The notes under the pieces are model-generated. The model made no database searches. It worked only from the letters and a program-made list of their open reading frames with translations, and was not told the origin of the DNA. From the IMG/VR virus record IMGVR_UViG_2630968933_000007, positions 1-64,000 of that record: a stretch of 64,000 nucleotides of DNA; one strand, 5' to 3'. This stretch comes from a virus. Its lineage: Duplodnaviria; Heunggongvirae; Uroviricota; Caudoviricetes. Shown here piece by piece: positions 13,461-59,300 of this stretch; position 1 is the first letter of the stretch, and each line of letters begins with the position of its first letter. The translations under genes were made by a program, and so were the position numbers.

Positions 13461-13514
13461 TTGATATTTCTCTGGGGTAAAGCGCCGCCAGAATGACGGC
13501 GCGGTAGTGGAGAG

Positions 13515-13823
13515 TTAAACGAAGCGGATCTGGAGTTTTTTCCCTGTAGCACGGGCGAATTTTTTCAGTGTGGCAAATGATGGGCCGCTTGTACCTGATG
13601 CAAGATTGCTTTCCATTCTGGTTATCGCAGTCGCTTTTGTTCCCATACGTTCAGCAACTTCAGCCTGGGTTAAGCCAGCTTCTTTTCGTGCTGCCAGCAT
13701 TTCATCAAGTAGTGCGAATTCATCGGCGATGGCGTCGTATTCTGCTTTTACTGCGGGGTTAGACAACATTTTTTCTACCATATCATCGTGTGTCATGGTA
13801 GGTGGGGTACGTTTACCAGTCAT
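13515..13823 (-). CDS. HTH (XRE-type) antitoxin, HigA-like
   Basis: 102-aa ORF with HTH ...GLTQAEVAERMGTKATAITRME...; overlaps upstream toxin gene by 11 bp. Confidence 0.75.
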   Translation of the reverse strand: MTGKRTPPTMTHDDMVEKMLSNPAVKAEYDAIADEFALLDEMLAARKEAGLTQAEVAERMGTKATAITRMESNLASGTSGPSFATLKKFARATGKKLQIRFV

Positions 13824-14142
13824 GCTTAACCTCCTTCATTCTGGTTTCAGCTTTTCTAAGCTCGGCAGGTGGAGTTTTTTGCGTTTTCTTTACAAAGCTA
13901 TGCAACATAATGATTCGCTTTCCTTTTAGCGTGCAGTAAAAAACACGCCCTATGCCTTCCGAGCCCTTAAGGCGGATTTCAAACAAACCGTCGCCAAATG
14001 CCTCTGTATGCGGGGAACCAAGATTAGCTCCGTAAATACGCATTTTCTCCGTGTACCGAATGTACCGGGCTTGTAAGGTCTCAGGAAGAGAAAGGATCTC
14101 AGCTTCAACCTCGTCACTGTAGTATTCGATAATGTAGTTCAT
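13813..14142 (-). CDS. RelE/ParE-superfamily toxin, Gp49/HigB-like
   Basis: MNYIIEYY...GDGLFEIRLKG..GIGRVFYCTLKGKRIIMLHSFVKKTQKTP fits Gp49-like toxin pattern; toxin-first operon order. Confidence 0.75.
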   Translation of the reverse strand: MNYIIEYYSDEVEAEILSLPETLQARYIRYTEKMRIYGANLGSPHTEAFGDGLFEIRLKGSEGIGRVFYCTLKGKRIIMLHSFVKKTQKTPPAELRKAETRMKEVKHDW

Positions 14143-14463
14143 GAGAGTAAACATAACAAATTTGTTATATACATTCAAGGTATGTTGACGACAACACATA
14201 TCCGGGATTATATTCTTCGCACGCCAGCAAAATCTGGCGTCGGGATTAGGAACCCCGGATATTCAACCGCGACAGACACACGCCGCGAGCGTGTTTTTTA
14301 TTGTCGTATGCACACGCACATCTGAATTATGGTGGGGCGTATGGGGCAGCCGAAAGGCTGGCCGGTTGGTTGATCCGGTAGTTCCTAACCCTGTACGTCT
14401 CGCCACCCGATGATTAGGAACCTGACGGTGGTGATAGTTTAGAAACCACTCGAGGGCGTCATT

Positions 14464-43136: not shown

Positions 43137-43275
43137 ATGTCGCAAAAATCGCTTATCACCGTCACAATTTGCATGACGGTAATCTTCACCATCTGGATGT
43201 TACACGGTTCGCTGTGTGAGTTCCGGCTGAATTTGTGGGGAGCGGAGTTTGCGGCGTTCTTACAGTGTAAGCAGT
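43137..43275 (+). CDS. hok: Hok/Gef-family type I toxin (45 aa), below the ORF-track size cutoff
   Basis: MSQKSLITVTICMTVIFTIWMLHGSLCEFRLNLWGAEFAAFLQCKQ: TM segment then SLCE.R...G.E.AAF pattern; SD aggagg; downstream GAAA-loop hairpin 43282-43303. Confidence 0.7.
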
Positions 43276-43333
43276 AGGAAAACCGCGACGGGGACGAAAG
43301 TCCCCGTCAACTGGTTGCTGAGGTTCAGCCGAT

Positions 43334-46539: not shown

Positions 46540-49500
46540 ATGGCTTATTCCGATGAACAGCGCCCTGAAGCGCAATTTGGCAACCAGAACCGCAACAGCC
46601 TGAACATTCAGCAGCCGGGCGAGACTGACCGCTATGATGCGTTTTTCTCCGATCCCAATCGCTGGAAGGACAACAGCACGTCGTTCAGCCTGGGCGATGT
46701 ATTGCCAACTATGGGGAAAGGTGTCGCCCAGTCCGTCCGGGGGGCAGGGGAAATGGCCCGTGGACTCGGTGATGCGATGATTCAGAGCCCGGTAAAAACA
46801 GGGGCGCGTATTTTAAATGAGTTCAGCCGTATGGGGCTGCCGGGAGTCGCAACTGTTCAGGATATTTTTGTCGGTGGCAGCAAGGGGGCGGATGAGGTCA
46901 TCGACACTCTGCCTGATGGAAAAAATGCGGTTACTGATATTGTCGGTAAAGGTCTGAAGGTCACAGGCAAGGCAGTCAGTGGCGGCGCTAAAGCCTCGGA
47001 TGAATGGCTGACTGGCAAGATGTCGCCGGGGGCGCTGCGGGCGCTGAATACACCGATGACTGAAGGATATGATGATTCTGCGGTCTGGGTGGCGAAGGGC
47101 GTAAACCTGATTGGTGCCCTTGTACCTGATATGGTTGCAGGCGGTGTGACTAAAAAGCTGGGTGAAGTCACTCTGCGAAAAATGCTGACCGCCGGGCTGG
47201 AGAAAAAATACATTGCGGCAGGGATGCAGCCGGAAAGAGCTACCGCACTGGCAGCAGAAGCTGTCGATAAAAAAATGCCGGATTTATTCCAGGCAGGCCT
47301 GATCACCCATTCCTCAGCCAGCGCACAGGGGCAGAGTGCAATGGCAGCAGCAGACTCTGTTCTTAACGCGGATTACTCTGAGCTGGCGAAGTCCCCGAAA
47401 TTTCAGCAGATGTTTTTGTCAATTGATGCAGATCCGCAGCACGCACAGCTTACTGATCGCCAGAAAATGGATCTGGCAAAAGAGCGTGTTGCCGATGAGG
47501 TGCGCGCGCAGCTGGCAACAGATCCTGAATTGCTGGCTGTGAATGCCATGGCGGCAAAACTGGGCGATGCTCAGTTGCTTAATCTGGCGATGCGGGGCAC
47601 GGCGAAGACCGTTAAAAGCGGCATTGTCAGAAATGCCACGGAACAGGGGACGATTAATGCGGCGCAGGGTGGCTATTCACGCTATCAGGAAAACACGGCA
47701 TTGCGTGAGACTGCCGGAATGGATGTATCACCATGGGAGGGGGTAGCTGACGCAACGATCGAAGGAGCCGCTCTTGGTGCAGCGATGGGCGCACCGTTCG
47801 GTGCGGTTGCCGGATATCGTGGAAAACGTCAGGCCGCAGAAGAAACCGCCATGCGTGAGGCTGAAGTCGTACAGCAGGGTGAAGCAGCCCCGCAACCCGA
47901 ACCGGCTGATCCGGTGGCACAGCATCGCGAATCCATGCAGGGCATGAATCGCGAGCAACTTCTGGAACAGTATGCTGATGCGGATATGGCACATGAGGGA
48001 GACACGTCTGCCGTTCATCGCCGGGAAGCCGCCAGCCAGCTGTTGAATGAACTGGATGAACAGGCGAAGCGACAGGCGGTAATGGATGAGCTGAAGGCGA
48101 AGCCGCGCCCTGAACTGCTTGAGGAATACCGAAAACTCAGCCTGAAGGAAGGGCGTACTGATACTGAAGAGCAGCAGTTACAGGCTATCCGTGATGTGCT
48201 TCGCCCTCAGCAGGAGGCCAGACCGGAGGCACAGCCACAGCCGGAAAATGCGGATGATGGCGACGGGAGTATTTACCCGACGGTGCGGTTCCGCGATCCG
48301 GATGAAGTTCGTATTGAAATTAACGGGAGTGGTGCGTCCAGACCAGCAGAACGCATTGAAAAGGTGCGTCCGGACAACCGTTATTTCACGGATGAAAAAA
48401 GTGCTCTGGGGAGCGACGTTTTCCGCAATGCCAGCGCCACCGGCCTGAAACCGTCCGTAGTAAAGAAAGGCGAGAATCAGTATGCCGTTGAAATGGATAA
48501 TCCTGCGTTCTCTGAAGATGTGGCAACGGAGACCATTAACACCCTGGCTGACGGAGAGCGTATTGCTGATGCTGAACCGATGGAGCAGCCCGCGTTCATG
48601 CGTGACCCGCGATTCCGTGGTTTCACGGGGGATGATACAGAAGTGCAGGCCCGCCTTGCCCGTGGCAACGCGCCGACGGCAGAGGAGCTTGTACGTTCAC
48701 AGATGGCTGAAGGTGATGCCGGTCCGACAGCACAGGAGTTAACTGAGCGTCCACGCCTTCCCGCTCCCGGTGATATTCATCCCGGACAGGGATATCCGTT
48801 ACCAGGAGAAGTGGCGCGTACGCCGGATGAAAATCAGGCCGGACGTGGTGGTCGTTTTACCACAACCGGTGAGGTGAAGGGCCAGAGTTTCCAGAAAGGA
48901 CGTGCGCAGGCACCGGAAAATGCCGCTGGTCGCCGGGGGGAAATACTGGAGGGCGAACCGGTTCGTCGTGGTCTGCCGTCACCGGATGAGCAGAACGCCA
49001 CAGCACCAGTGCGTGAAGGACTTCCTGCACCTGAAAGTCAGCGTGGGGTTGATATGCCACAGCCTGAATCACTCCCTCGTATGGTTCGTGACTCCCTTCC
49101 GGAACTGGCACAGCAGGCAGAAGCACGCAGACAGACCGGGGATAATCGCCAGACCATAACCGATGTTCCGGATACTGAGGTGCCGATGCCGGTAGATAAA
49201 CCGAGCACTCACCAGCAGGCGCGTGGTGCGAAAATTGAAGACTTTGGTGAAGAAATTAAGGGCGCGGCAAAACACCGTTATGCACAGCTTGCCGAAACAC
49301 TGGGTAAAACGCTGGAAGACAGGGATTATTTCACGCAGCCGCTGAGCAAAGTGTTCCCGAAACCGGACTATGCAAAACTGGCGAACGAAGGGGCCGACGC
49401 TGACACACTGGCAATGATAGCGCTGTATCGTAGCGATATTCCGGCGAAGACGAAACACAATACGGCTGGCTGGGGGGAGAGCGTAAAAAAAGTACGACAC

Positions 49501-52500
49501 AGTGTATCGGAAATGCTGAACGGAACGGTCAGCGCGAAACGCCTCGCAGAATGGATGGAAGGCAGAATGCCCTCCCGTTACGCGGATACCTGGCAACTGT
49601 TACGCACTCTGCCACCCTCACAGATGGACAAGGCTTCTGCTTATCGGGTGGTATCGGGTGTGTATCAGGCGGCAGGAGGGAAGCGTTACGATCCGCCACA
49701 GAAACTTTATTCACTGCGCAATAAGGACAATAAGGGGACTAACCTCTTTTTCTCGGAAAGCAGGGATGAATTACTGACAAAGGCGAAAGTCTGGTTTGCA
49801 GAGCTGGAGGAAAAGTCACAGGCGAAAGGAGATGAAAAAACGGCACCGTCACCGGATGACAAAATCAGCTTTGACGTTTACCGGAATACCCGTAGTGGCG
49901 ATATTTTTATCGCTTACGGCAAAAACAAAATGCGGGTGAGAGGTGGTTTTAAGTCAGCCAGTGATGCGCGTAAGTACATTGATTCACATCGTGATGAGCT
50001 TGTTCGTCATGTGAAGGAGATGCGGGAGATTTCGCGTGAGGAGCAGCGTAACGCCACCAACCGCGATCGTACCGGACCAGAACGCCGCAAGGGGGATGTT
50101 TCGCCGGAGCAGTTCAGTGATGCGTTTGGTTTTCGTGGTGTGCAGTTTGGTAATTATGTGGAAGGTCCGCGTCGTCAGGCTGATTTGAACCGGGCTTATG
50201 ACTCGCTGCATGACCTGGCTGATGTGCTGAACGTGCCGACAAAAGCGCTTTCTCTGAACGGTCGTCTTGGGCTTGCTTTTGGTGCCCGTGGTAAGGGTAA
50301 GGCGGCGGCACACTATGAGCCGGGTGAGGTGGCAATCAACCTGACAAAAGGTAACGGACCGGGTGCGCTGGCCCACGAATGGTTCCATTCACTGGATAAT
50401 TATTTTGGTCGTTATGATGTTTCCACTGACGGGAAGATCACGTCAGGTGGCGACTATATGACGGAAGCACAGCGTGCCGGGCGCGTATTTAAAGACGGCA
50501 GATATGTTGATGCGGAATATCCGGTACGTCAGGAGGTTTACGACGCGTTTAAAGGCGTGATGAAAGCGATCAACAGCAGTGACATGCCGCGTCGTTCAGC
50601 GCTTCTCGATGAGGTGCGCTCAAAACCGTACTGGTCAACGGATGTTGAAATGGCGGCGCGTGCCTTTGAGCGTTATGTTCAGGATAAAGCGCGTACGGCT
50701 GGCGTGGAGAATGATTATCTGGTCAATATCCGTAAGGCACCTGAGCACAACACAGATAACACCTGGGCTTATCCGACGAATGCGGAACTGGATGGCGGTA
50801 TTCGTGATGCATTCGATCACCTGTTCAGTACGCTGAAAACCCGTAAGACGGACAAGGGCGTTGCGTTTTATTCCCGTAAGGGCGTGACCCGCACACCTGA
50901 AGGCAATCTCATTTCGGATGTTAACCGCAGTGCGGAAGCCAAAGGCAGCCCGGTCCCGCAGGTTGAAGCGGTTGCCCGTGGCGTGATGAGTGGCATTAAG
51001 GACAGTGACCTGAAGGTCCGCGTGGTGAAGTCACAGAAAGAGGCTGAAGCACTGGCGGGTGAATCATTCGACGGTTACGGCAAGGTGCACGCGTTCTATC
51101 GTCCGGATAAACGTGAAATTGTCCTGGTGGCGGATAACATCCCTGACGGGCGGACCGTACGCGAGAAGTTGCGTCACGAGATTATCCACCATGCCATGGA
51201 GCATGTTGTCACGCCAGCGGAATATCAGACGATCATCAAAACCGTGCTGAAAACCCGCGACAGTGATAACGCCACCATCCGTGAAGCCTGGCGTAAGGTT
51301 GATGCGTCCTATGGTAAGGAATCACCGGAAGTGCAGGCGGGTGAATTTCTGGCACATATGGCGGAGAAACAGCCGAATAAATTCGTGGCGGCATGGGAGC
51401 GTGTTGTTGCCCTGGTCAAAGGGGTACTGCGTCGCACGGGGTTACTGAAGCCGACAGAACTGAACGATATCAGACTTGTTCGCGAGACCATCCGTACGTT
51501 AGGCCAGCGTGTGCGGGAAGGTTACACGCCGCGTGAGGATGGCGCTGGCGCATCGTCTCAGTACTCCCGTAGCGGTAAGCCTGATCCGTTCAAAGTGCCG
51601 GAAGGTGAGGGCGAGCGTTATCGTGATGACCTTGCCAGAATGATGAAGTCGTTACGTTCTGGTGCAATGACTGCAAACATCGGGCGTACGCCGCCGGTAT
51701 TGCGCCACCTTGGCGCACCAGATTTGCCGCTGGTTATCTCCCGCGACACTGTGCGGAAGGCTACCAATGGCGTGAAACATGTGGTGCCAATGGATGTTAT
51801 CGAGAGACTTCCGGAACTGATGCACGATCCGGATGCAATTTACCGTTCCGCGACAGAAAGAAATGCGGTTGTGATGCTGCTTGATGCCATGGATAAAAAT
51901 GGTGATCCGGTCGTCTCGGCAGTGCATATGAAGGCGACAGATAAACGTCTGGAAATTAACAAGGTGGCATCTGTTTACGGTACGGAAAACGGGAAAAAGC
52001 TGAAAAGTATGGAAATGGCTGGATTAACGCTTTACCGGAAGGAGAAATTAAGCCGCGATAACCCTCAGTACAGTGGGCTCCAATTGCCCAAAGAGGAGCG
52101 TTCTTATCGCGGCTCTGTAGATAAAATACTCTATCCTGAAGATATTCGCAAGGGGCCGTATTACTCCCGTACCAGCAGTCTGACACCGGAAGAGACAATT
52201 GCATCGCGTTTTGTGCGCCAGATGCAGGATAAATTCCAGGTGCTGAAAGCTGTTCAGGAGAATATCCGTAAAACTGGCGGAAAAATAGACGACAGTAACA
52301 ACGCTTATATGGCGGAAGAACTCTTCCACGGGAAGGCGGAAAACGACCTGAACGTGATGAAGGAGCGCTACGTTCAGCCACTGGCTAAATTACTGGCGGA
52401 CTACAAAATTGCGCAGGCCGATCTGGATGAGTACCTCTACGCCCGTCACGCGCCGGAACGTAACGCGCATATTGCGAAAATCAACCCGAAAATGCCGGAC

Positions 52501-54906
52501 GGCGGTTCGGGGATGACCAACGCGGAAGCGGCGGAAATCATGCAGCGTGTGCGTAACAGTGGCAAACAGGCACAGTATGACCGTCTGGCAGGGATTGTTG
52601 ACGATATGCTGGCCCGTCGCCGTGAGCTTATCCGTGAGGCCGGACTGGAAGAGAGCGGTGTGGTGGATGCCTGGCAGAACGCCTACCGTTACTACGTTCC
52701 CCTGAAAGGTCAGGATGTTGACGGTGTGGTGTCACTGCCCCGTACAGGTAAGGGCTTCACCATCGGCGGACGTGAAAGCAGGCAGGCCATGGGGCGTGCA
52801 TCCCGCGCACAGTCTCCTTCCACTCAGGCGATACAGGATTTGAGCGAATCGCTGATCCGCCATCGCAAAAACGAAGTGGGTAACGCCTTCCTGAAACTGG
52901 TGCAGGATAATCCCGATAAGGATTACTGGCAGGTATTCACTGATGACAAACCGGACACCATGCGGGCGATTGCAGAGCGTGTTGATCCGGAAACCGGCGA
53001 AACCCGTCGCGAAGTTGTTGAACGTCCGGTGCCTATGGCAATGATGGCGGATCGCTACTTCACCACCAAAAAGGACGGCAAAACTTACTACATTAAACTT
53101 CATGATCCGCGCCTGATGCGTGCGATGAAGAACATGGGGCCGGAAACCAGTAACGCCGTAATCCGTACGCTGGGGAAAGTTAACCGTTTCCTGGCAACGG
53201 TGAACACGTCGTATAACCCGGAATTTCTGGTCAGTAACTTCATCCGTGACGTGCAGACGGCGGTGATGAACCTGAAGGCGGAGCAGGGAAGGAGCGACGG
53301 TAAACTGAAAGGGCTGGATAACTTATCCGCCCTGGCTGTAGTCAAAGACAGCCGTTCTGCAATGTCAGCCGTGTACGCCAGTCTGCGTGGCAAAACCCTC
53401 ACGGGCAAAGGCGCACAGTGGCAGAAAGTGTGGAAAGAGTTTGTTGAGGACGGAGGTAAAACCGGCTGGTTTAACATGGGTGACCTTGAAGGCCAGAAGA
53501 AGGAAATGGATCGCCTTGTATCGCTGGCGAAGGGAGGATGGAAAGGCCAGAGTATCGGTGCATGGCATTCGTTCCTGAACCTGGTCGAGGATGCCAACGG
53601 CGCGGTTGAAAACGCTCTGCGTCTTTCTGCCTATAAACACGCCCGTGATGCCGGTTTGTCACGCCAGCAGGCGGCATCTCTTGCCAAAAACATGACGGTG
53701 AACTTTAACCGTCGTGGTGAGCAGGGAGCGCTGATGAACTCGCTGTATATGTTTGCCAACGCCAGCATTCAGGGGACCGCAAACCTGGTGAGAACGCTCG
53801 GACATCTTAATGGCGACGGGCCGTTACCGGAGCGCCTTCGCTGGAAGAATCTCAATGTACCGCAGAAAATCGCGCTTGCAGCTGTGGGAGCGGGTTATCT
53901 GCTTGGCTCGCTTAACCGCAGTGTTGCGGGGGAGGATGATGACGGGGTTAACTGGTACGACAAGGTGCCGTATCATGTGAAAGAGCGTAACCTCGTCATT
54001 ATGAAATCGATGTTCGGGGGCAGGGCCGGAGAGTACTGGAGTATTCCTCTGCCTTACGGGTACAACGTTTTCTTCCTGCTCGGGCATACCTCTGAAGGTG
54101 TGGCTGCTGGTGACCTGACGGCGTCCCGTGCTGCCGGTAATGTTGTCGGTGGTATCCTGGGGGCATTCAGCCCGATTGGCAGTGAGACGTCGGAAACGCT
54201 GTCCGGGGCATTGCTGAAAAATGCAGCACCGACAATTCTGCGTCCGTTTGCGAATCTTGCCATGAACGAAAACTTCATGGGGGCGCAGATTTACCAGGAG
54301 AACATGCCGTTTGGTACACCAAAACCTGACAGCCAGCTGGGAAGACGTTCAACGCCAGAAGCGTACAAGGCGTTTGCATCCTGGCTGAATGCGTTCTCAG
54401 GTGGCAGCCAGTATCGTCCCGGCGCGGTGGATATCACACCGGAATCGCTGAAATTCTGGATTGACTATATCTCCGGAGGGACAGGGCGCTTCATTTCCAA
54501 AACCACAGATGCGGCGGTGAAATCGCTGAACGGTATTGATATACCGGAGCAGCAGGTGCCCTTCCTGGGGAAAATTTCGGGTGAGGTGATGCCGTATGCA
54601 GACCAGCAGAAGATGTACGACCGGATGACAGAGGTTGCGCAGTATCACGCAGAGCTGAAGAGTCTGACCGGTGCAGAAAGAACGGCGTTCATTGACGAGA
54701 ACAACGGAAAATTGTTGATGAACGGGCTTATGCAGGATACCCGGAAGAGACTGAAGGATTTGCGCAAACAGCGCGATGCCATTTATGCCGACAGTTCTCT
54801 CAGTCTGGCGCAGCAGGCGGCGATGGTGAAATCGGTAGAGCGGGATATGAAGGTTGCCGTGGATCGCTTTAACCGCGAGTACAACAAAAAAGTGGGAGTG
54901 GATTAA
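46540..54906 (+). CDS. Giant 2788-aa protein (putative virion-associated/ejection protein) with HExxH motif
   Basis: Single uninterrupted ORF; HEWFH at residues 1279-1283 (nt 50374-50388); terminator 46513-46537 upstream. Confidence 0.7.
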   Translation: MAYSDEQRPEAQFGNQNRNSLNIQQPGETDRYDAFFSDPNRWKDNSTSFSLGDVLPTMGKGVAQSVRGAGEMARGLGDAMIQSPVKTGARILNEFSRMGLPGVATVQDIFVGGSKGADEVIDTLPDGKNAVTDIVGKGLKVTGKAVSGGAKASDEWLTGKMSPGALRALNTPMTEGYDDSAVWVAKGVNLIGALVPDMVAGGVTKKLGEVTLRKMLTAGLEKKYIAAGMQPERATALAAEAVDKKMPDLFQAGLITHSSASAQGQSAMAAADSVLNADYSELAKSPKFQQMFLSIDADPQHAQLTDRQKMDLAKERVADEVRAQLATDPELLAVNAMAAKLGDAQLLNLAMRGTAKTVKSGIVRNATEQGTINAAQGGYSRYQENTALRETAGMDVSPWEGVADATIEGAALGAAMGAPFGAVAGYRGKRQAAEETAMREAEVVQQGEAAPQPEPADPVAQHRESMQGMNREQLLEQYADADMAHEGDTSAVHRREAASQLLNELDEQAKRQAVMDELKAKPRPELLEEYRKLSLKEGRTDTEEQQLQAIRDVLRPQQEARPEAQPQPENADDGDGSIYPTVRFRDPDEVRIEINGSGASRPAERIEKVRPDNRYFTDEKSALGSDVFRNASATGLKPSVVKKGENQYAVEMDNPAFSEDVATETINTLADGERIADAEPMEQPAFMRDPRFRGFTGDDTEVQARLARGNAPTAEELVRSQMAEGDAGPTAQELTERPRLPAPGDIHPGQGYPLPGEVARTPDENQAGRGGRFTTTGEVKGQSFQKGRAQAPENAAGRRGEILEGEPVRRGLPSPDEQNATAPVREGLPAPESQRGVDMPQPESLPRMVRDSLPELAQQAEARRQTGDNRQTITDVPDTEVPMPVDKPSTHQQARGAKIEDFGEEIKGAAKHRYAQLAETLGKTLEDRDYFTQPLSKVFPKPDYAKLANEGADADTLAMIALYRSDIPAKTKHNTAGWGESVKKVRHSVSEMLNGTVSAKRLAEWMEGRMPSRYADTWQLLRTLPPSQMDKASAYRVVSGVYQAAGGKRYDPPQKLYSLRNKDNKGTNLFFSESRDELLTKAKVWFAELEEKSQAKGDEKTAPSPDDKISFDVYRNTRSGDIFIAYGKNKMRVRGGFKSASDARKYIDSHRDELVRHVKEMREISREEQRNATNRDRTGPERRKGDVSPEQFSDAFGFRGVQFGNYVEGPRRQADLNRAYDSLHDLADVLNVPTKALSLNGRLGLAFGARGKGKAAAHYEPGEVAINLTKGNGPGALAHEWFHSLDNYFGRYDVSTDGKITSGGDYMTEAQRAGRVFKDGRYVDAEYPVRQEVYDAFKGVMKAINSSDMPRRSALLDEVRSKPYWSTDVEMAARAFERYVQDKARTAGVENDYLVNIRKAPEHNTDNTWAYPTNAELDGGIRDAFDHLFSTLKTRKTDKGVAFYSRKGVTRTPEGNLISDVNRSAEAKGSPVPQVEAVARGVMSGIKDSDLKVRVVKSQKEAEALAGESFDGYGKVHAFYRPDKREIVLVADNIPDGRTVREKLRHEIIHHAMEHVVTPAEYQTIIKTVLKTRDSDNATIREAWRKVDASYGKESPEVQAGEFLAHMAEKQPNKFVAAWERVVALVKGVLRRTGLLKPTELNDIRLVRETIRTLGQRVREGYTPREDGAGASSQYSRSGKPDPFKVPEGEGERYRDDLARMMKSLRSGAMTANIGRTPPVLRHLGAPDLPLVISRDTVRKATNGVKHVVPMDVIERLPELMHDPDAIYRSATERNAVVMLLDAMDKNGDPVVSAVHMKATDKRLEINKVASVYGTENGKKLKSMEMAGLTLYRKEKLSRDNPQYSGLQLPKEERSYRGSVDKILYPEDIRKGPYYSRTSSLTPEETIASRFVRQMQDKFQVLKAVQENIRKTGGKIDDSNNAYMAEELFHGKAENDLNVMKERYVQPLAKLLADYKIAQADLDEYLYARHAPERNAHIAKINPKMPDGGSGMTNAEAAEIMQRVRNSGKQAQYDRLAGIVDDMLARRRELIREAGLEESGVVDAWQNAYRYYVPLKGQDVDGVVSLPRTGKGFTIGGRESRQAMGRASRAQSPSTQAIQDLSESLIRHRKNEVGNAFLKLVQDNPDKDYWQVFTDDKPDTMRAIAERVDPETGETRREVVERPVPMAMMADRYFTTKKDGKTYYIKLHDPRLMRAMKNMGPETSNAVIRTLGKVNRFLATVNTSYNPEFLVSNFIRDVQTAVMNLKAEQGRSDGKLKGLDNLSALAVVKDSRSAMSAVYASLRGKTLTGKGAQWQKVWKEFVEDGGKTGWFNMGDLEGQKKEMDRLVSLAKGGWKGQSIGAWHSFLNLVEDANGAVENALRLSAYKHARDAGLSRQQAASLAKNMTVNFNRRGEQGALMNSLYMFANASIQGTANLVRTLGHLNGDGPLPERLRWKNLNVPQKIALAAVGAGYLLGSLNRSVAGEDDDGVNWYDKVPYHVKERNLVIMKSMFGGRAGEYWSIPLPYGYNVFFLLGHTSEGVAAGDLTASRAAGNVVGGILGAFSPIGSETSETLSGALLKNAAPTILRPFANLAMNENFMGAQIYQENMPFGTPKPDSQLGRRSTPEAYKAFASWLNAFSGGSQYRPGAVDITPESLKFWIDYISGGTGRFISKTTDAAVKSLNGIDIPEQQVPFLGKISGEVMPYADQQKMYDRMTEVAQYHAELKSLTGAERTAFIDENNGKLLMNGLMQDTRKRLKDLRKQRDAIYADSSLSLAQQAAMVKSVERDMKVAVDRFNREYNKKVGVD

Positions 54907-55056
54907 CAGAAATGGCCCCGTACGGAAGTGCGGGGCTGATTAAGAAATAAACACACATTAACCTGTAATAACCGGAGCTATTAACATATAGTCAGAAAGA
55001 GTATTTCATGTGAGACAGAGAGCCGATTTATGTTTAATGAAGAAAAAGTTGCGTAA

Positions 55057-55581
55057 ATGGCAGCGTATTTGCTGAAAAAACATGGCGGATCTATGCGTTT
55101 CATTAAGCTGATGTATCTCTCTGACCGCAAAGCAATGGAGTTGTATGGTTTTCCCATTAGTGGTGATCATTATTTCTCTATGAACAAAGGACCCGTTTTA
55201 TCGCAGACATATTCTTTGGTTAAGGATGGAAGTGAAAACGAGTACAGTCCGTGGGAATCATGGATATCTGATGTAGCGGATCATAAGGTTGAAATGTGGC
55301 GTACATTTTCTTCTGTTGATGAGCTGGGGGAGTTATCGCCCGCAGAAATAGAGTCAATGGACATAATTTTTGGTCAATATGGAGGTTGGGATGCGTTCAG
55401 GCTTTGTGATGAAACTCACAGAATTTGCGGTGAGTGGCGCGATCCGCATGGTTCATCAATTCCAATCAGCCTTAAGGATATATTTATTGCTCTTGGAAAG
55501 TCGCCAGAAGCAGCAACAGTAATGGCGAATAGCATTTATGCGCAAAATAATCTTGATATATTATTAAGTGATCTGAGGTAG
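55057..55581 (+). CDS. Panacea-domain (DUF4065, SocA-like) protein
   Basis: 174-aa ORF ...FIKLMYLSDRKAMELYGFPISGDHYFSMNKGPV... pattern; in-frame MFNEEKVA-stop directly upstream. Confidence 0.55.
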   Translation: MAAYLLKKHGGSMRFIKLMYLSDRKAMELYGFPISGDHYFSMNKGPVLSQTYSLVKDGSENEYSPWESWISDVADHKVEMWRTFSSVDELGELSPAEIESMDIIFGQYGGWDAFRLCDETHRICGEWRDPHGSSIPISLKDIFIALGKSPEAATVMANSIYAQNNLDILLSDLR

Positions 55582-55669
55582 TCGGGATGATGTTCAGCCC
55601 TTATTTGTATTTACCGGGGAGGGAAGATGTTTAATTCCGATTCCCCGGCTCCACAGGCCTAACCTAACT

Positions 55670-56314
55670 TTATGTAACAGTCCATGCAGGGCTGAAATCT
55701 GCCTGCTGAAATAACTCCGTTAGCCCGCTAATCTGCTTTAACCTCAGAACTTCATCCTGGTCCATCCCCAGTTCTGTTCCGATACGTTCATCAGTCCAGC
55801 CAAGACGTGAAAGATCTCTGACAATATCAGACATTGAGGTTATCTGGTGTTTCCCCCTGGCTCTGTTATGTCGGATAGTCGCGGCAATACGTGAGGTTTG
55901 TCCCTTTCGGTCTGGATTAATACAGGTTACTGGTAGCCAGCCTTTCAGGCGTTTTCCAGTAACTGTTCTTCTACCTAGTAACTGCCTATGAAAACCATCC
56001 ACCACCAGGTAATGGCTTGTTTCTTCCGAAACAACAATTGGTTGAGTAAAACCGTCTTTTTCCAGAGATTGTTTCAGTAATTTTTTTTCGCTTGGGGCCA
56101 TGACATTGGGATTATAATCGTTAGCGACAATTTCATCCGCTTTTACCCACAGCACACAGTCCACTGGTTCTTGAGCAAAGGGGCTGATCTCATGGAGTAC
56201 GCAGCGGAGATGGTTCAGGGCCTGTATGGTTTTCTCTTCAGATTGTTCCTGACTGAAGTACTGTCGAATCATCTTGCTCAGCACCTCCACCTCTGGTGTC
56301 ACAGAATTCCCCAT
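55670..56314 (-). CDS. ibrB: IbrB-like ParB/Srx-type nuclease-domain protein
   Basis: 214-aa ORF with ParB-like motif region ...QPIVVSEETSHYLVVDGFHRQ...; overlaps ibrA-like gene by 16 bp. Confidence 0.65.
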   Translation of the reverse strand: MGNSVTPEVEVLSKMIRQYFSQEQSEEKTIQALNHLRCVLHEISPFAQEPVDCVLWVKADEIVANDYNPNVMAPSEKKLLKQSLEKDGFTQPIVVSEETSHYLVVDGFHRQLLGRRTVTGKRLKGWLPVTCINPDRKGQTSRIAATIRHNRARGKHQITSMSDIVRDLSRLGWTDERIGTELGMDQDEVLRLKQISGLTELFQQADFSPAWTVT

Positions 56315-57525
56315 TCCTTCCTCCTTTCATTCATACGCTGCAGGTAACGTTCATAGTGCCGGGGTTTGTTGGGGCTGAAGGAGAGCGTTCGGCACCAGAA
56401 ATCATTCTTTATGAGAGTCTTACAAATACGTCGCCAGGAGGGAACATCCCGGCAGCCCAGATCATTTTCCTGTTCATCCGGGATATCATCCGGGAATCCC
56501 CGGTTCTGATACCAGCGCAGGTAAACTGCTATCTTGTTGCGGTAGTGTTCAGCCGTTCTTTCCGGCATTACGTCCAGCAGGAAGAACGCATAGCTGCGCC
56601 AGGTATGATGGGATGGTTTTGACATCCGTTTACGCAGGGCAAAATAGGCCCCGCTTTCATTGGCATAAAGAGCCCCACTGGCAGCACCAGATACTCGTTC
56701 ACACATCCGTGCCCAAGTTTCTGGCTCCAGAACATGATAAAGCCATAGTCCCTTACGCTGTTCCGGGCCAAAAGGCTCACAGACACGCATATTACGTAGA
56801 GGAATGCCTGCGCGGTACATCAAATCATACAGAGGATTGTAGATTGCACAGGTTTTAGCGTTATATACCCAGATATCGTTGGTTTTCCAGTCATACAGCG
56901 GATACATGGTGTAGTAAAAACCTTCAGGTGACGCCGTGGTCCAGGGTTTATCATCTGCATATCTCAGTTTTCGTTGGGAAACCAGTCCCATAAATCTGTT
57001 AAGAGATTCATCCGCGCGGACTCCAGTCAGTATTGCCACGCTACATTGGTTACTTGCGAACCAGGAAGAAAAAGCCGGGACAAATTCTTCAAAAGTCATG
57101 GCGTAGCGGTAAAAGGGGAAATACGCCATATCAGTAATAGCATCTTCCGGTGGCTGTCGAACCCACTCTACACCGGGCTCCCAGCATATCCACTCAGGCT
57201 GAAACTGCGAGACACCATTTACTGTCGTCAGGGGAAGTGCAACCCAGTAAAAGGTATCTGTTACATCTTGGTACATCATCCGCATCTTCTGTATATGATC
57301 AATGGTGCATTGATACTGGGCTTCCCAGTCAATGAACAATACAGAAAAACGACGTTTCTTCCTGTAGGCCACTTCGGCTACAAGATGGAAAAGTACAGTG
57401 GAATCTTTACCGCCAGAAAAAGATAAACATACAGAAGAGAATGTTTCAAACAACCATTCAATGCGGTGAATGGCTGCTGACAAAACATCTTCTCCAGTTC
57501 TGATTTTTGTTATAGTTACCGGCAT
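56299..57525 (-). CDS. ibrA: IbrA-like PAPS-reductase-family (PP-loop ATP pyrophosphatase-like) protein
   Basis: 408-aa ORF with PP-loop-like SFSGGKDS motif near N-terminus. Confidence 0.65.
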   Translation of the reverse strand: MPVTITKIRTGEDVLSAAIHRIEWLFETFSSVCLSFSGGKDSTVLFHLVAEVAYRKKRRFSVLFIDWEAQYQCTIDHIQKMRMMYQDVTDTFYWVALPLTTVNGVSQFQPEWICWEPGVEWVRQPPEDAITDMAYFPFYRYAMTFEEFVPAFSSWFASNQCSVAILTGVRADESLNRFMGLVSQRKLRYADDKPWTTASPEGFYYTMYPLYDWKTNDIWVYNAKTCAIYNPLYDLMYRAGIPLRNMRVCEPFGPEQRKGLWLYHVLEPETWARMCERVSGAASGALYANESGAYFALRKRMSKPSHHTWRSYAFFLLDVMPERTAEHYRNKIAVYLRWYQNRGFPDDIPDEQENDLGCRDVPSWRRICKTLIKNDFWCRTLSFSPNKPRHYERYLQRMNERRKEWGIL

Positions 57526-57693
57526 ACAATCTGATAAAAATAGCGAGGGTTTGCATTTTACCTAGTAACGTTATGTAACTATTTTTTTGAATAAAGGCAA
57601 TGAGATAATGATAAAAAATGTTTATCTAATGTACTGAGCTCTTCTCTTTATTGTATTAACTCTTCGATTTCAGCGGCGTTGTCGTTCAGGTAT

Positions 57694-57714
57694 AAAAAAA
57701 GGAGCCGAAGCTCC
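57694..57714 (-). terminator. Intrinsic terminator after ant (same hairpin as 15143-15162, inverted)
   Basis: ggagc-ttcg-gctcc + T7 on minus strand. Confidence 0.65.
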
Positions 57715-57721
57715 TTTGGTA

Positions 57722-58351
57722 TCAGAATTCAAATTGTCTTGCCCGCAGGCTTTTCAGCATTGGTCTGGCCCGCTGAACTACGAAACTCGACTGGTCAAGC
57801 CGTGCCGCCTCTCTCAGTAGCACATCTCTGTTCTTCGTCACCATGTAGATAGTCTCAAACGCAATGTCATACAGCTTGTTCGTGTATGAGGAGTTCAGCT
57901 CTTTCATTATGGGGTACAGCTGCTTGCTAAGGTCCTGGGCTTTTTCCATCCAGAGCTGCATGTAGCAAAGGAGGATGATTTCCTCGGCTGTGAATTGCGG
58001 CTGTGGTTCTGCTTGTACTGGCTGAATGTTGCGAAGTTTCTTTTCGCACTCGATGAAGTAGCGGCGGATCTGGCGACCTTTTTCGTTACGTTCAACCATC
58101 GCAAGCTCTTTGGCTGTGTCGAGGGTGAGGTGGTAATCCTTGCGGCGGCGGCCTGGAGTTTTCGCCAAATTTGGCGAAAATAGAATGTAGTCTAAATTTT
58201 CTACGAATCCATACTCGTTTAGCCTGGCCCGTATCCAGTTAGAAAAATCTTTACCTACCTCTAAAAATCCATGCAAATCACGCGCGTTCACCAGAAGCGT
58301 AGGTTCATTTGAGATTGTACCTTCAAACACAGGGATGAGTTGAGTGGTCAT
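57722..58351 (-). CDS. Antirepressor, AntA-like N-terminal domain + C-terminal domain shared with 14464..15135
   Basis: Start MTTQLIPVFEGT with SD aggagg; ...DFSNWIRARLNEYGFVENLDYILF... AntA-like. Confidence 0.7.
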   Translation of the reverse strand: MTTQLIPVFEGTISNEPTLLVNARDLHGFLEVGKDFSNWIRARLNEYGFVENLDYILFSPNLAKTPGRRRKDYHLTLDTAKELAMVERNEKGRQIRRYFIECEKKLRNIQPVQAEPQPQFTAEEIILLCYMQLWMEKAQDLSKQLYPIMKELNSSYTNKLYDIAFETIYMVTKNRDVLLREAARLDQSSFVVQRARPMLKSLRARQFEF

Positions 58352-58600
58352 GATGACCTCCTTTGGCTTTTTTCGAGAAATGCCACCACAAGATGTGGTG
58401 CCGGGAGGCTCGAAACGGCCCAAAAGATACCGCGGACTTATTCCCCTTGCGGGTGTTGTATTCGTCGCCCTCCCGACATTGATCGGGGATGTGACCGCAC
58501 ACTGTGCTATCACTGAATAACAGGCATAAAAAATCCAACACTGACGGGGTTGGTTTAATCCGCTTTTGGGAGGTTTTCGAGGCCTCGGCGCGGAGTATAG

Positions 58601-58885
58601 TCAGTATTGGACGCAGTCGTCAACCATCGCAAGCTCTTTGGCTGTGTCGAGGGTGAGGTGGTATTCCTTGCGGTTGTGACCGCCTCTACCTTTTGCTTCC
58701 CGAATTTGGGAAGCAATCATATAGTCCTGATTTTCAACGAAACCATATTCAGCAATACGTTCTGTTATCCACGATGCAAAGCGTTTACCAACCCCAAGGA
58801 AAGCGTGTAGATTGCGAGCATTGCATAGAAGGGCTGCTTGGTTTGAGATAGAACCGTTGAATACGGGGATGAGTTGACTGGTCAT
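58601..58885 (-). pseudogene. Truncated second AntA-like copy (N-terminal 94 codons only)
   Basis: MTSQLIPVFNGSIS... with identical SD; homologous to 58086-58351 but ends prematurely. Confidence 0.5.
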
Positions 58886-59300
58886 GATGACCTCCTTATT
58901 TGTTTAGTTTATAACCGCCAGTTAGTAGCTGGCGGTCGGGTGTCAACTGAGCCAAATAAGAAGCTCTGGGCATATTCCCCTTGCGGGTGTTGTATTACGC
59001 CTCTCCACCCGACCTTTGTACGGATGTAACTATGCCAAATTGCAGGCATAAAAAAGCCGCAAAGCTATCGGGTGCGGAGACCGCTTATTTGTTCAGTGCG
59101 ATCAGTATGCGATAGCTCTGGCGGATTTGTCAAATCGTGCAGTAACATCCTTTTCTTCCTTGCCATTTCTCAATGATGACAAAGGGTGGATTCGGATTGG
59201 TATTGGGACAAAAGTGAGACACACAAAGCTTTGCATCGGCTTACAAAGCTTTGCATGTTTTTCAATGTTGGGACGTGTGAGCGCAGAAATGACGGGCTAT

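Follow-up and report, generated by a model that had tools for sequence, protein, structure and literature searches.

The ibrA-ibrB cassette of a 933W-like prophage: an obligate pair of PP-loop and ParB/Srx-type proteins with a possible DNA-directed role

What do IbrA and IbrB do? The two proteins are encoded by an overlapping gene pair that joins a phosphoadenosine phosphosulfate (PAPS) reductase-like protein to a ParB-like protein, and one copy of the pair lies in the window analysed here (64,000 nucleotides, positions 1 to 64,000 of the IMG/VR virus record IMGVR_UViG_2630968933_000007, Caudoviricetes). An earlier note, made from the sequence alone, had recognised ibrA and ibrB, suspected a DNA-modification or defence dyad and held its mechanism to be under-described. 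The last point is borne out: full-text literature searches, in which the original 2002 paper was not among the searched texts, returned annotation-level mentions and no mechanistic or biochemical study of IbrAB. In that literature the pair figures as an annotation label, as a differentially expressed 'immunoglobulin-binding regulator' (PMC7649339), as a guilt-by-association 'toxin-antitoxin' pair in Listeria and in a 'CysH' clade with DUF3440 (bioRxiv 2021.01.05.425418). We show here that ibrA and ibrB are obligately paired, and tentatively propose that their products act together on DNA. The argument starts from the following features:

55605-57657: ibrAB cassette, 2,053 bp, without a counterpart in phage 933W, where L0135-L0141 including hokW/sokW stand in its place
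55670-56314, minus strand: ibrB, 214 amino acids (aa); ParB/Srx-type N-domain, then a predicted helix-turn-helix (about residues 160-200)
56299-57525, minus strand: ibrA, 408 aa; PP-loop/PAPS-reductase fold (about residues 1-240), then helical DUF3440 (about 240-408)
56299-56314, minus strand: overlap of ibrA and ibrB, 16 bp
57526-57657, minus strand: cassette-specific region upstream of ibrA, 27% G+C; presumed promoter/regulatory region
57698-57717, minus strand: intrinsic-terminator-like hairpin and T-run, ending the antirepressor gene upstream of ibrAB
57722-58351, minus strand: AntA/AntB-type antirepressor gene flanking the cassette, 83% identical to 933W L0142

The open reading frames (ORFs) and the 16-bp overlap described by the earlier note are all found in the ORF table and in the raw sequence. 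Since IbrA has more than 6,800 homologues, the three ORFs of the region (ibrA, ibrB and a neighbouring Panacea gene, see below) are not a chance pattern. Within the 3' end of ibrA lies a strong Shine-Dalgarno sequence for ibrB (AAAGGAGGAAGGA-ATG), which together with the overlap suggests that translation of the two genes is coupled. The identification as ibrA/ibrB also stands: phage PhiR5_2, in which the genes are annotated IbrA/IbrB, carries the same DNA at 100% identity, and among Escherichia coli chromosomes the stretch from 54900 to 57700 is matched at 100% by four and at 99.6% or more by 15 others. RefSeq names the products 'phosphoadenosine phosphosulfate reductase' (ibrA) and 'IbrB-like domain-containing protein' (ibrB), and the IbrB protein is 100% identical to database proteins named IbrB-like. 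The PF01507-then-PF11922 architecture of the IbrA/IbrB family is present, as is the adjoining, overlapping IbrB-like gene. It is thus near certain from these comparisons that the locus is an ibrA-ibrB module, already named and widespread. The locus itself is not new, but a named module in a classic 933W-like, antirepressor-flanked setting.

The limits of the cassette were set by blastn of window positions 54000-59500 against phage 933W. Homology to 933W is continuous up to 55111, reappears at 55507-55604 and resumes from 57658, inside antirepressor L0142. The intervening DNA contains ibrB, ibrA, the 132-bp upstream stretch and nothing else, and it is near certain, on this alignment, that ibrAB forms an accessory cassette of 2 kb, complete in itself, within the variable right arm of the prophage. 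The terminator-like hairpin closes the upstream antirepressor gene, thus ibrAB probably has its own promoter. A promoter scan of the 132-bp region did not find a consensus sigma-70 promoter, and an inverted-repeat scan upstream of ibrA returned weak AT-rich repeats only, among which no candidate IbrB site could be named.

The two proteins and their pairing

IbrA matches the Pfam families PAPS_reduct (PF01507, 1.5e-16) and DUF3440 (PF11922, 5.2e-33), both above their gathering scores, and weakly the PP-loop family. In an alignment of 35 sequences reaching down to 27% identity, G39, K40 and S42 of the SGGKDS PP-loop never vary and S37, G38 and D41 hardly do; D66, E68, T74, S174, D217, Y233 and three tryptophans are invariant too. 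IbrA thus has the SGGxDS loop on a Rossmann-like fold that marks the PP-loop ATP (adenosine triphosphate) pyrophosphatases of the adenine nucleotide alpha-hydrolase superfamily, and judged from these residues it should bind ATP and release pyrophosphate (PPi). At about 84% DNA identity between E. coli alleles, the encoded IbrA proteins still reach about 92% identity, which indicates purifying selection on the protein. The best structural matches of IbrA are CysD, FMNAT (flavin mononucleotide (FMN) adenylyltransferase) and the CysH group, and not tRNA enzymes; the DUF3440 domain, about 170 extra residues, is without structural match. Longer IbrA-like proteins (493-671 aa) were scanned for domain fusions and gave no informative ones, the single exception being a dubious ABC_tran fragment; these proteins probably result from errors in gene calling.

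No cysteine is conserved across the 35 sequences. C249 is found in 23 of them, and the commonest cysteine column (30/35, position 96) is an alanine in the present IbrA. Because a family-wide cysteine is lacking, IbrA is neither a thiol-dependent PAPS reductase nor a DndC-type iron-sulfur (Fe-S) enzyme. The thiol chemistry of CysH requires a cysteine, and a true CysH-type PAPS reductase acting as an auxiliary metabolic gene is effectively excluded. Such an enzyme is what the RefSeq product name implies, and a virome study placed DUF3440-bearing proteins in the CysH clade; however, the Fe-S type of CysH requires a CC...CxxC motif (both bioRxiv 2021.01.05.425418). Moreover, the NCBIfam models for CysH/CysD score about 25-34 bits on IbrA against cut-offs of 154-413 (CysH alone, 24.7-33 against 154-254), the ATP-binding SGGKDS loop is canonical, and IbrA is obligately paired with a ParB-like protein. 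The NCBIfam DndC model is equally far from its mark (17.8 bits against a cut-off of 290). Among the PADLOC defence models, IbrA matches BrxP (1.6e-7, residues 17-96, the PP-loop region alone) and DndC, both weakly.

For IbrB, single-protein searches gave a Pfam ParB_N match (1.6e-3) under the gathering score and a weak NCBIfam Noc match. When a family profile of 20 diverse members (46-62% identity) was searched against PDB sequences, the first match was Helicobacter pylori ParB (4umk, 3.6e-6), followed by Noc, Spo0J, other ParBs and SbnI (E 0.079). The ParB/Srx assignment therefore stands, and PHROG 2159, 'ParB-like', agrees with it (4.9e-91). Profile searches thus back both of the folds that had been proposed in the earlier note. 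Residues 160-193 match a helix-turn-helix-type transcription-regulator PHROG weakly, and helices are predicted in that region. The invariant motifs of the family are ANDYNPN, DG[FY]TQP, VDGFHR, TIRHNRARGxH and ELGM..DEVLRL.Q..GL; in the present protein DGFHR occupies residues 106-110 and RHNRARGKH residues 148-156. The GERR/GERRxRA box with which ParBs bind cytidine triphosphate (CTP) aligns with vvDGFHRqll of IbrB, where only the G and one R are kept. With VDGFHR at the GERR position, the CTP-clamp signature is not retained. Members of the DGxHR motif class (Srx, SerK/SbnI, DndB, Osa) use ATP and are not CTP clamps, and we take the VDGFHR motif of IbrB to resemble this class. No PADLOC defence-system model matched IbrB, and the locus had no system-level match.

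The family is large. More than 6,800 of 8,000 candidates scored were IbrA homologues, and IbrA matches 1,811 clusters (50% identity clustering) at E<=1e-3, 317 of these below 1e-30. An ibrAB copy is found in 1,930 of 5,426 complete E. coli genomes (about 36%), on top of the K-12-type ybdNM paralogue pair; the present allele occurs in 19, and the rest are about 84% identical in DNA. These latter copies sit in genomic islands, as in CFT073, O157:H7 and Nissle 1917, and copies on plasmids exist too. The roughly 1,900 E. coli matches at 80-90% DNA identity are not ybdNM, a possibility that was ruled out by the protein identities of YbdN and YbdM (just 57% and 61%). In CFT073 (locus L170, 5647-7857) and O157:H7 (locus L171, 5647-7850), a PerC-family regulator gene and a conserved 645-bp hypothetical gene directly follow ibrAB; ibrB is frameshifted in CFT073. 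Co-induction of ibrB and perC upon epithelial-cell contact has been described (PMC7649339). Among cultured phages, 220 records carry an IbrA relative, with hosts including Flavobacterium, Mycobacterium, Streptococcus, Arthrobacter and Bacillus.

Pairing was assessed in 163 loci: 79 bacterial loci (one genome per species), 80 viral contigs and annotated records. IbrB adjoins IbrA in 160 of them. In the three exceptions the contig starts a few hundred bases upstream of ibrA, at a small gene that separates ibrB from ibrA; ibrB was thus merely cut off by the contig end, and the pairing is obligate. The order is A to B, with genes touching or overlapping, in all 79 bacterial loci, and the viral contigs show both orders (38 A to B, 39 B to A). 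In 37 environmental viral contigs (among loci L114-L164, for example L144:2002-2409), a conserved protein of about 130 aa without Pfam or PHROG match is encoded between ibrB and ibrA; its consensus reads ...W..SCEANLTAS..N.QAW.GHAACA....PEDLTR.AW..L...Q...AN.AAD.AI..W. This protein, which has no equivalent in the enterobacterial cassettes, may be a third subunit or a substrate carrier. A GNAT acetyltransferase is additionally present in 11 viral loci.

The phage neighbourhoods are those of DNA metabolism. In Streptococcus phage PY1 the pair stands after helicase genes and ahead of Sak4 and a further helicase. Its place in Microcystis phage Mwe-JY13 is between YqaJ-RecT and primase/ParB-Srx genes, and in Faecalibacterium phage Taranis it stands immediately ahead of the terminase genes. 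Recurrent neighbours in environmental contigs are a ResIII/DEAD helicase, C5 cytosine methylase, SSB, a DnaD-like protein, RecT, a DnaB-like helicase, sliding clamp, NinG and the large terminase. Such a context would be expected of a function on phage DNA, and not of a host-gene regulator or a sulfur-metabolism gene. The present locus has no neighbours other than the Panacea gene and antirepressor genes. Neither dndA, dndD nor dndE was found at the locus or recurring in 157 neighbourhoods, and the locus contains none of the BREX genes looked for (PglZ, BrxC, BrxL).

Candidate functions of the pair

The reading that we favour, tentatively and at somewhat less than an even chance, is that IbrA and IbrB act as one DNA-directed adenylyl-transfer or modification enzyme. 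IbrB would bind DNA through its predicted C-terminal helix-turn-helix, while its ParB/Srx-type nucleotide-binding domain (DGFHR, RHNRARGKH) would recruit or gate IbrA on double-stranded DNA. The intact PP-loop of IbrA (SGGKDS) would split ATP into adenosine monophosphate (AMP) and PPi and move the AMP onto a nucleic-acid group, most likely a phosphate-type oxygen if its nearest structural relatives, CysD and FMN adenylyltransferase, are a guide. Such a transfer would leave the nucleic acid with a covalent mark, or else would activate it for substitution by a second nucleophile. Phages, lytic or temperate, would direct the dyad at their own DNA as it replicates. The published switching-on of silent eib genes in prophages would follow indirectly, from changes to the DNA of AT-rich loci that are otherwise silenced. 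The analysis shows the domains, motifs, pairing, cassette and contexts described above; that the two proteins form a complex, that they act on DNA and by what chemistry are points that we infer.

We prefer this reading because the pair is coupled and conserved and moves as one unit, because its phage context is that of DNA metabolism, and because ParB-family proteins have precedents as partners of DNA-modifying enzymes: DndB works with DndC (PMC10853773), DpdB works with DpdA (PMC12839542), and phage thymine dioxygenases need ParB on double-stranded DNA only (PMC13229309). Several observations weigh against it. No modified base or backbone is reported for any ibrAB carrier in the literature searched, and the sole published phenotype, as cited in PMC7649339, is the activation of prophage eib genes. 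In its sequence scores IbrA does not lie nearer to DndC (E 1.2e-3) than it does to CysD/CysH (E about 1e-8). The 157 neighbourhoods hold no conserved restriction or nuclease partner and no sulfur-, amine- or sugar-donor gene beside the pair. The E. coli island pair often stands beside a PerC-family regulator, which fits a purely regulatory role equally well. Finally, an AlphaFold model of IbrB from a shallow alignment (at least 74% identity) reached a pLDDT (predicted local distance difference test) of 46, so the helix-turn-helix stays a prediction and any interface with IbrA hypothetical.

The main rival makes IbrB a VirB-like anti-silencer, which would spread on or remodel AT-rich DNA and relieve H-NS-type silencing, for instance of eib, with IbrA as an accessory that makes or consumes a nucleotide ligand of IbrB or adenylylates IbrB itself; the DNA would remain covalently unchanged. 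The eib phenotype, the 27% G+C of the region upstream of ibrA, the Eib-family gene on the same prophage and the PerC-family regulators and autotransporter or surface-protein genes that adjoin the E. coli island copies all speak for it, and VirB, a member of the ParB family, indeed counters H-NS silencing and requires CTP (PMC10653881). We nevertheless consider it rather unlikely: IbrB carries DGFHR where CTP-dependent ParBs have GERRxRA, an invariant and obligately paired PP-loop enzyme is poorly explained as an accessory, and the pair is common in Flavobacterium, Mycobacterium, Streptococcus and environmental phages, inside replication modules. H-NS belongs to the enterobacteria, and relief of its silencing would leave the pair unexplained in Flavobacterium, Mycobacterium and Streptococcus hosts. 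A target other than DNA is unlikely. IbrA would then modify RNA (for example tRNA, like TilS, TtuA and NcsA), a protein or a small nucleotide, with IbrB as a ParB/Srx-type kinase or ATPase partner in the manner of Srx or SbnI, and Eib would rise through translation or signalling. The weak match of the IbrB profile to the ParB/Srx-fold protein SbnI points in this direction; SbnI is a serine kinase, and the DGxHR class includes the ATP-using enzymes Srx, SerK and SbnI. However, tRNA enzymes are not among the best structural matches of IbrA, IbrB keeps a ParB-like domain order with a helix-turn-helix-like region, and the phage context is one of DNA replication and recombination and not of translation.

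It is more improbable still that ibrAB is a conflict system, that is an anti-phage defence or a phage counter-defence working by nucleotide depletion or by marking DNA against restriction, with eib activation as a side effect. This would suit the variable accessory slot, which in 933W holds hok/sok and other accessory genes, the AAA proteins encoded near both the CFT073 and the O157 copy, the ATP-dependent nuclease also found near the former, and the weak BrxP and DndC matches of IbrA. ParB-family proteins have moreover been proposed as conflict-system effectors (PMC10853773), and a cluster of PAPS-reductase effectors is reported from PANGU-like defences (bioRxiv 2026.04.06.716658). Against this, no PADLOC model covers IbrB and IbrA is matched over its PP-loop only, no nuclease or restriction partner is conserved, and the ybdNM paralogues, in K-12 and 26 of the 79 bacterial loci, sit at a fixed locus beside a LysR-type repressor gene, which is atypical of defence islands. 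For the earlier suspicion of a DNA-directed role, the obligate pairing and the phage replication and recombination context are comparative support, which leaves it unproven.

If the favoured DNA-directed reading is carried further, IbrAB, YbdNM and their phage homologues may constitute a widespread, minimal, two-protein kind of nucleic-acid modification, although we regard this generalisation as less likely than not. It would be a ParB/Srx-guided PP-loop adenylyltransferase with a chemistry unlike Dnd/Ssp phosphorothioation or Dpd deazaguanine insertion, by which phages would mark their own genomes and islands would switch on silenced genes such as eib epigenetically. A candidate target for such switching is at hand in the same prophage:

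36273-37352, plus strand: Eib-family trimeric autotransporter, 359 aa; YadA_anchor 4.6e-16, EibD structure 2xzr 3.1e-7

The C-terminal 40-54% of this protein is 58-61% identical to EibA/C/D/E of ECOR-9. The YadA anchor, the structure match and this identity uphold the Eib-like autotransporter that the earlier note had placed here, and by homology it is a candidate IbrAB target in cis. The record of PhiR5_2, which has the identical cassette, gives E. coli K-12 MG1655 as host. With ibrAB and an Eib-family target in cis, and PhiR5_2 on K-12, it is feasible to distinguish a DNA modifier from an anti-silencer experimentally.

The value of the locus therefore lies in the tractable test that it offers of a large family without known biochemistry. 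This family takes in the phage 'PAPS reductase plus ParB-like' pairs that are now annotated as sulfur-metabolism or partition genes. If the modification reading is true, a widespread mis-annotation of phage 'cysH' auxiliary metabolic genes would be corrected.

The host prophage and the Panacea gene

Judged by its gene content, the element that hosts ibrAB is an Stx-negative, 933W-like prophage that sits in ynfG. In the RefSeq annotation of strain G1/2, a lambdoid early region is combined with a late region of the 933W type, which encodes an N4-gp56-type capsid protein, a giant polyvalent protein with LPD38, LPD5, LPD1 and MuF_C domains, and AntA-type antirepressors; the matching G1/2 prophage has no annotated stx gene. 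The right part of the element carries two further features:

58601-58885, minus strand: second, truncated AntA-type antirepressor gene
59331-59414, minus strand: 84-bp remnant of a 4Fe-4S protein gene (ynfG) at the right prophage junction, adjoining ynfF

The insertion site follows from the end of the prophage in the truncated 4Fe-4S gene beside ynfF/ynfE. The Eib-family autotransporter shares about 50% identity with its PhiR5_2 counterpart (38307-39563), although the ibrAB region is 100% identical, and 65-67% with the autotransporters of phages GER2, PhiR5_1 and PhiR12. The unequal identities mean that the prophage is a mosaic in which the adhesin gene was swapped independently of ibrAB. On the plus strand, positions 46540-54906 encode an uninterrupted polyvalent protein of 2,788 aa (domains LPD5, LPD1, MuF_C, LPD38). 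The same gene is a frameshifted pseudogene in the near-identical G1/2 record, which may be a sequencing error or a real inactivation. The G1/2 annotation, with shifted coordinates, also lists a RelE/ParE toxin and helix-turn-helix antitoxin pair at about 13500-14200 (minus strand), and the same annotation has a Hok/Gef family gene at about 43150-43300 (plus strand). The prophage thus has several addiction-type modules beside the broken Panacea module that lies convergent to ibrB:

55030-55056, plus strand: original first eight Panacea codons (MFNEEKVA) and premature TAA (55054-55056), with an ATG directly after
55057-55581, plus strand: Panacea (SocA/DUF4065) gene, 174 aa as now read; SocA_Panacea PF13274 2.4e-19
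55587-55604, plus strand: first six codons of a partner ORF (MMFSPY); 933W homology stops at 55604, where the cassette starts

A standalone Panacea protein convergent to the pair, preceded by an in-frame eight-codon ORF ending in TAA, had been noticed before and read as a possible CAA to TAA truncation. Phage 933W settles the matter, as it reads GCG CAA ATG where the window reads GCG TAA ATG. The TAA at codon 9 is present in 5/5 copies examined of this prophage lineage. Full-length Panacea homologues start MFSEERVAQMAAYLL, those of Yersinia phage YeP2 and Pseudomonas phage Sirocco start M(I)FSE(E/Q)(R/K)VAQMAAY, and PHROG profiles align to the present protein from profile position 10-15 (PHROG 1281 from 15). 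The ATG right after the stop may permit re-initiation of translation.

The standalone gene turned out to be the orphan of a two-gene module. In YeP2 (locus L173, 2474-3438) both genes are intact and the Panacea gene overlaps a downstream 135-aa ORF, the usual antitoxin-toxin arrangement. Phage 933W (locus L004, 5130-5478) has a 395-bp internal deletion in its Panacea gene, and its L0135 (62 aa) is a remnant of the 135-aa partner ORF (tblastn 1e-4 and an N-terminal PYR(K/R)GT match). The bicistron seems ancestral in this slot of 933W-like phages, which in the window corresponds to 55030-55641. In the present prophage no co-oriented toxin gene adjoins the Panacea gene, and only 88 bp separate its stop from the convergent ibrB. 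Could the Panacea protein nonetheless work with IbrAB, as a third component or as an antitoxin to a toxic pair? Its adjacency and convergent orientation would allow this, but we give the idea almost no credence: Panacea lies beside ibrAB in 7 loci, all of this prophage lineage, and is absent from the other 155 or so, its remnant occurs in 933W, itself without ibrAB, and its homologues elsewhere pair with a different downstream ORF. Because the adjacency is confined to this lineage and a remnant exists in ibrAB-less 933W, Panacea is separate from ibrAB, and by this comparison it is part of the phage backbone, an antitoxin-type gene that has been orphaned and is itself decaying, unrelated to the cassette. 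A role as immunity gene for the 2,788-aa polyvalent protein was rejected as well, since 933W-type phages keep the polyvalent protein though their Panacea gene is internally deleted.

Comparison with known systems

The closest named system is the IbrAB island of strain ECOR-9, which the present locus resembles in gene names (via PhiR5_2), overlapping two-gene layout, flanking antirepressor genes with 933W-like sequence, and an Eib-family gene in the genome. It differs in that the present cassette lies inside an apparently complete prophage with its own eib-like gene. Identity with the ECOR-9 type locus is what we infer from these likenesses. Sandt, Hopper and Hill (2002, J Bacteriol 184:3640) reportedly described an 'IbrAB genetic island' in ECOR-9 and eib genes on four other prophages; their abstract is said to mention homology of the island to Stx2 phage, antirepressor genes and a boundary near min 35.8 of K-12. 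We take min 35.8 to be the location of ynfEFG, and a match to the present prophage in ynfG is presumed. YbdN/YbdM of E. coli K-12 (b0602/b0601) have the same architectures, gene order and overlap, with 57% (YbdN-IbrA) and 61% (YbdM-IbrB) identity; in contrast to ibrAB they occupy a fixed chromosomal locus that is not mobile, and no Eib link is reported for them. The ybdNM genes are repressed by the adjacent LysR-type regulator CitR/YbdO (PMC9068703).

Other resemblances concern one half of the pair or its neighbour. With CysH, CysD and eukaryotic FMN adenylyltransferase IbrA shares a fold, but it scores far under their cut-offs, has no conserved catalytic cysteine and carries the extra DUF3440 domain of about 170 residues. 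BREX type 4 differs from the present locus in its companion genes, which are missing here, and the BrxP match is limited to IbrA residues 17-96. VirB, ParB, Noc and KorB have a ParB N-domain followed by a helix-turn-helix, an order that is a prediction for IbrB, and structures of ParB and Noc are matched by the IbrB profile. VirB switches on virulence genes that were acquired horizontally and silenced (PMC10653881). Unlike the ParB-CTPase clamps, IbrB has DGFHRxLL in place of GERRxRA and is always accompanied by its PP-loop partner. The 174-aa neighbour shares the Panacea domain with the PanA/SocA antitoxins, and its YeP2 homologue forms an overlapping bicistron in the usual antitoxin-toxin layout, whereas the present gene has a stop at codon 9 and has lost its partner ORF but for six codons.

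There are also pairs in which a ParB-family protein serves a DNA-modifying enzyme. In DndB-DndC a ParB-superfamily, DGxHR-type protein is partnered with a DNA-acting PP-loop ATP pyrophosphatase of the PAPS-reductase family (PMC10853773). Dnd, however, requires DndA/IscS, DndD and DndE, none of which is near ibrAB, and DndC holds a [4Fe-4S] cluster by cysteines such as C280 (PMC11662687); IbrA has no family-wide cysteine and scores 17.8 bits against 290 with the DndC model. In DpdB/DpdA and ParB/5mYOX, a ParB-family partner is encoded beside, and required by, a post-replicative DNA-modifying enzyme (PMC12839542; PMC13229309), and 5mYOX176 requires its ParB on double-stranded DNA only (PMC13229309). 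The enzymes themselves are of other classes, tRNA-guanine-transglycosylase-like for DpdA and an Fe/2OG (iron and 2-oxoglutarate) dioxygenase for 5mYOX. The ParBs of 5mYOX keep a dimerisation domain and have no obvious DNA-binding domain, and IbrB is apparently the reverse, with a helix-turn-helix and no C-terminal dimerisation domain.

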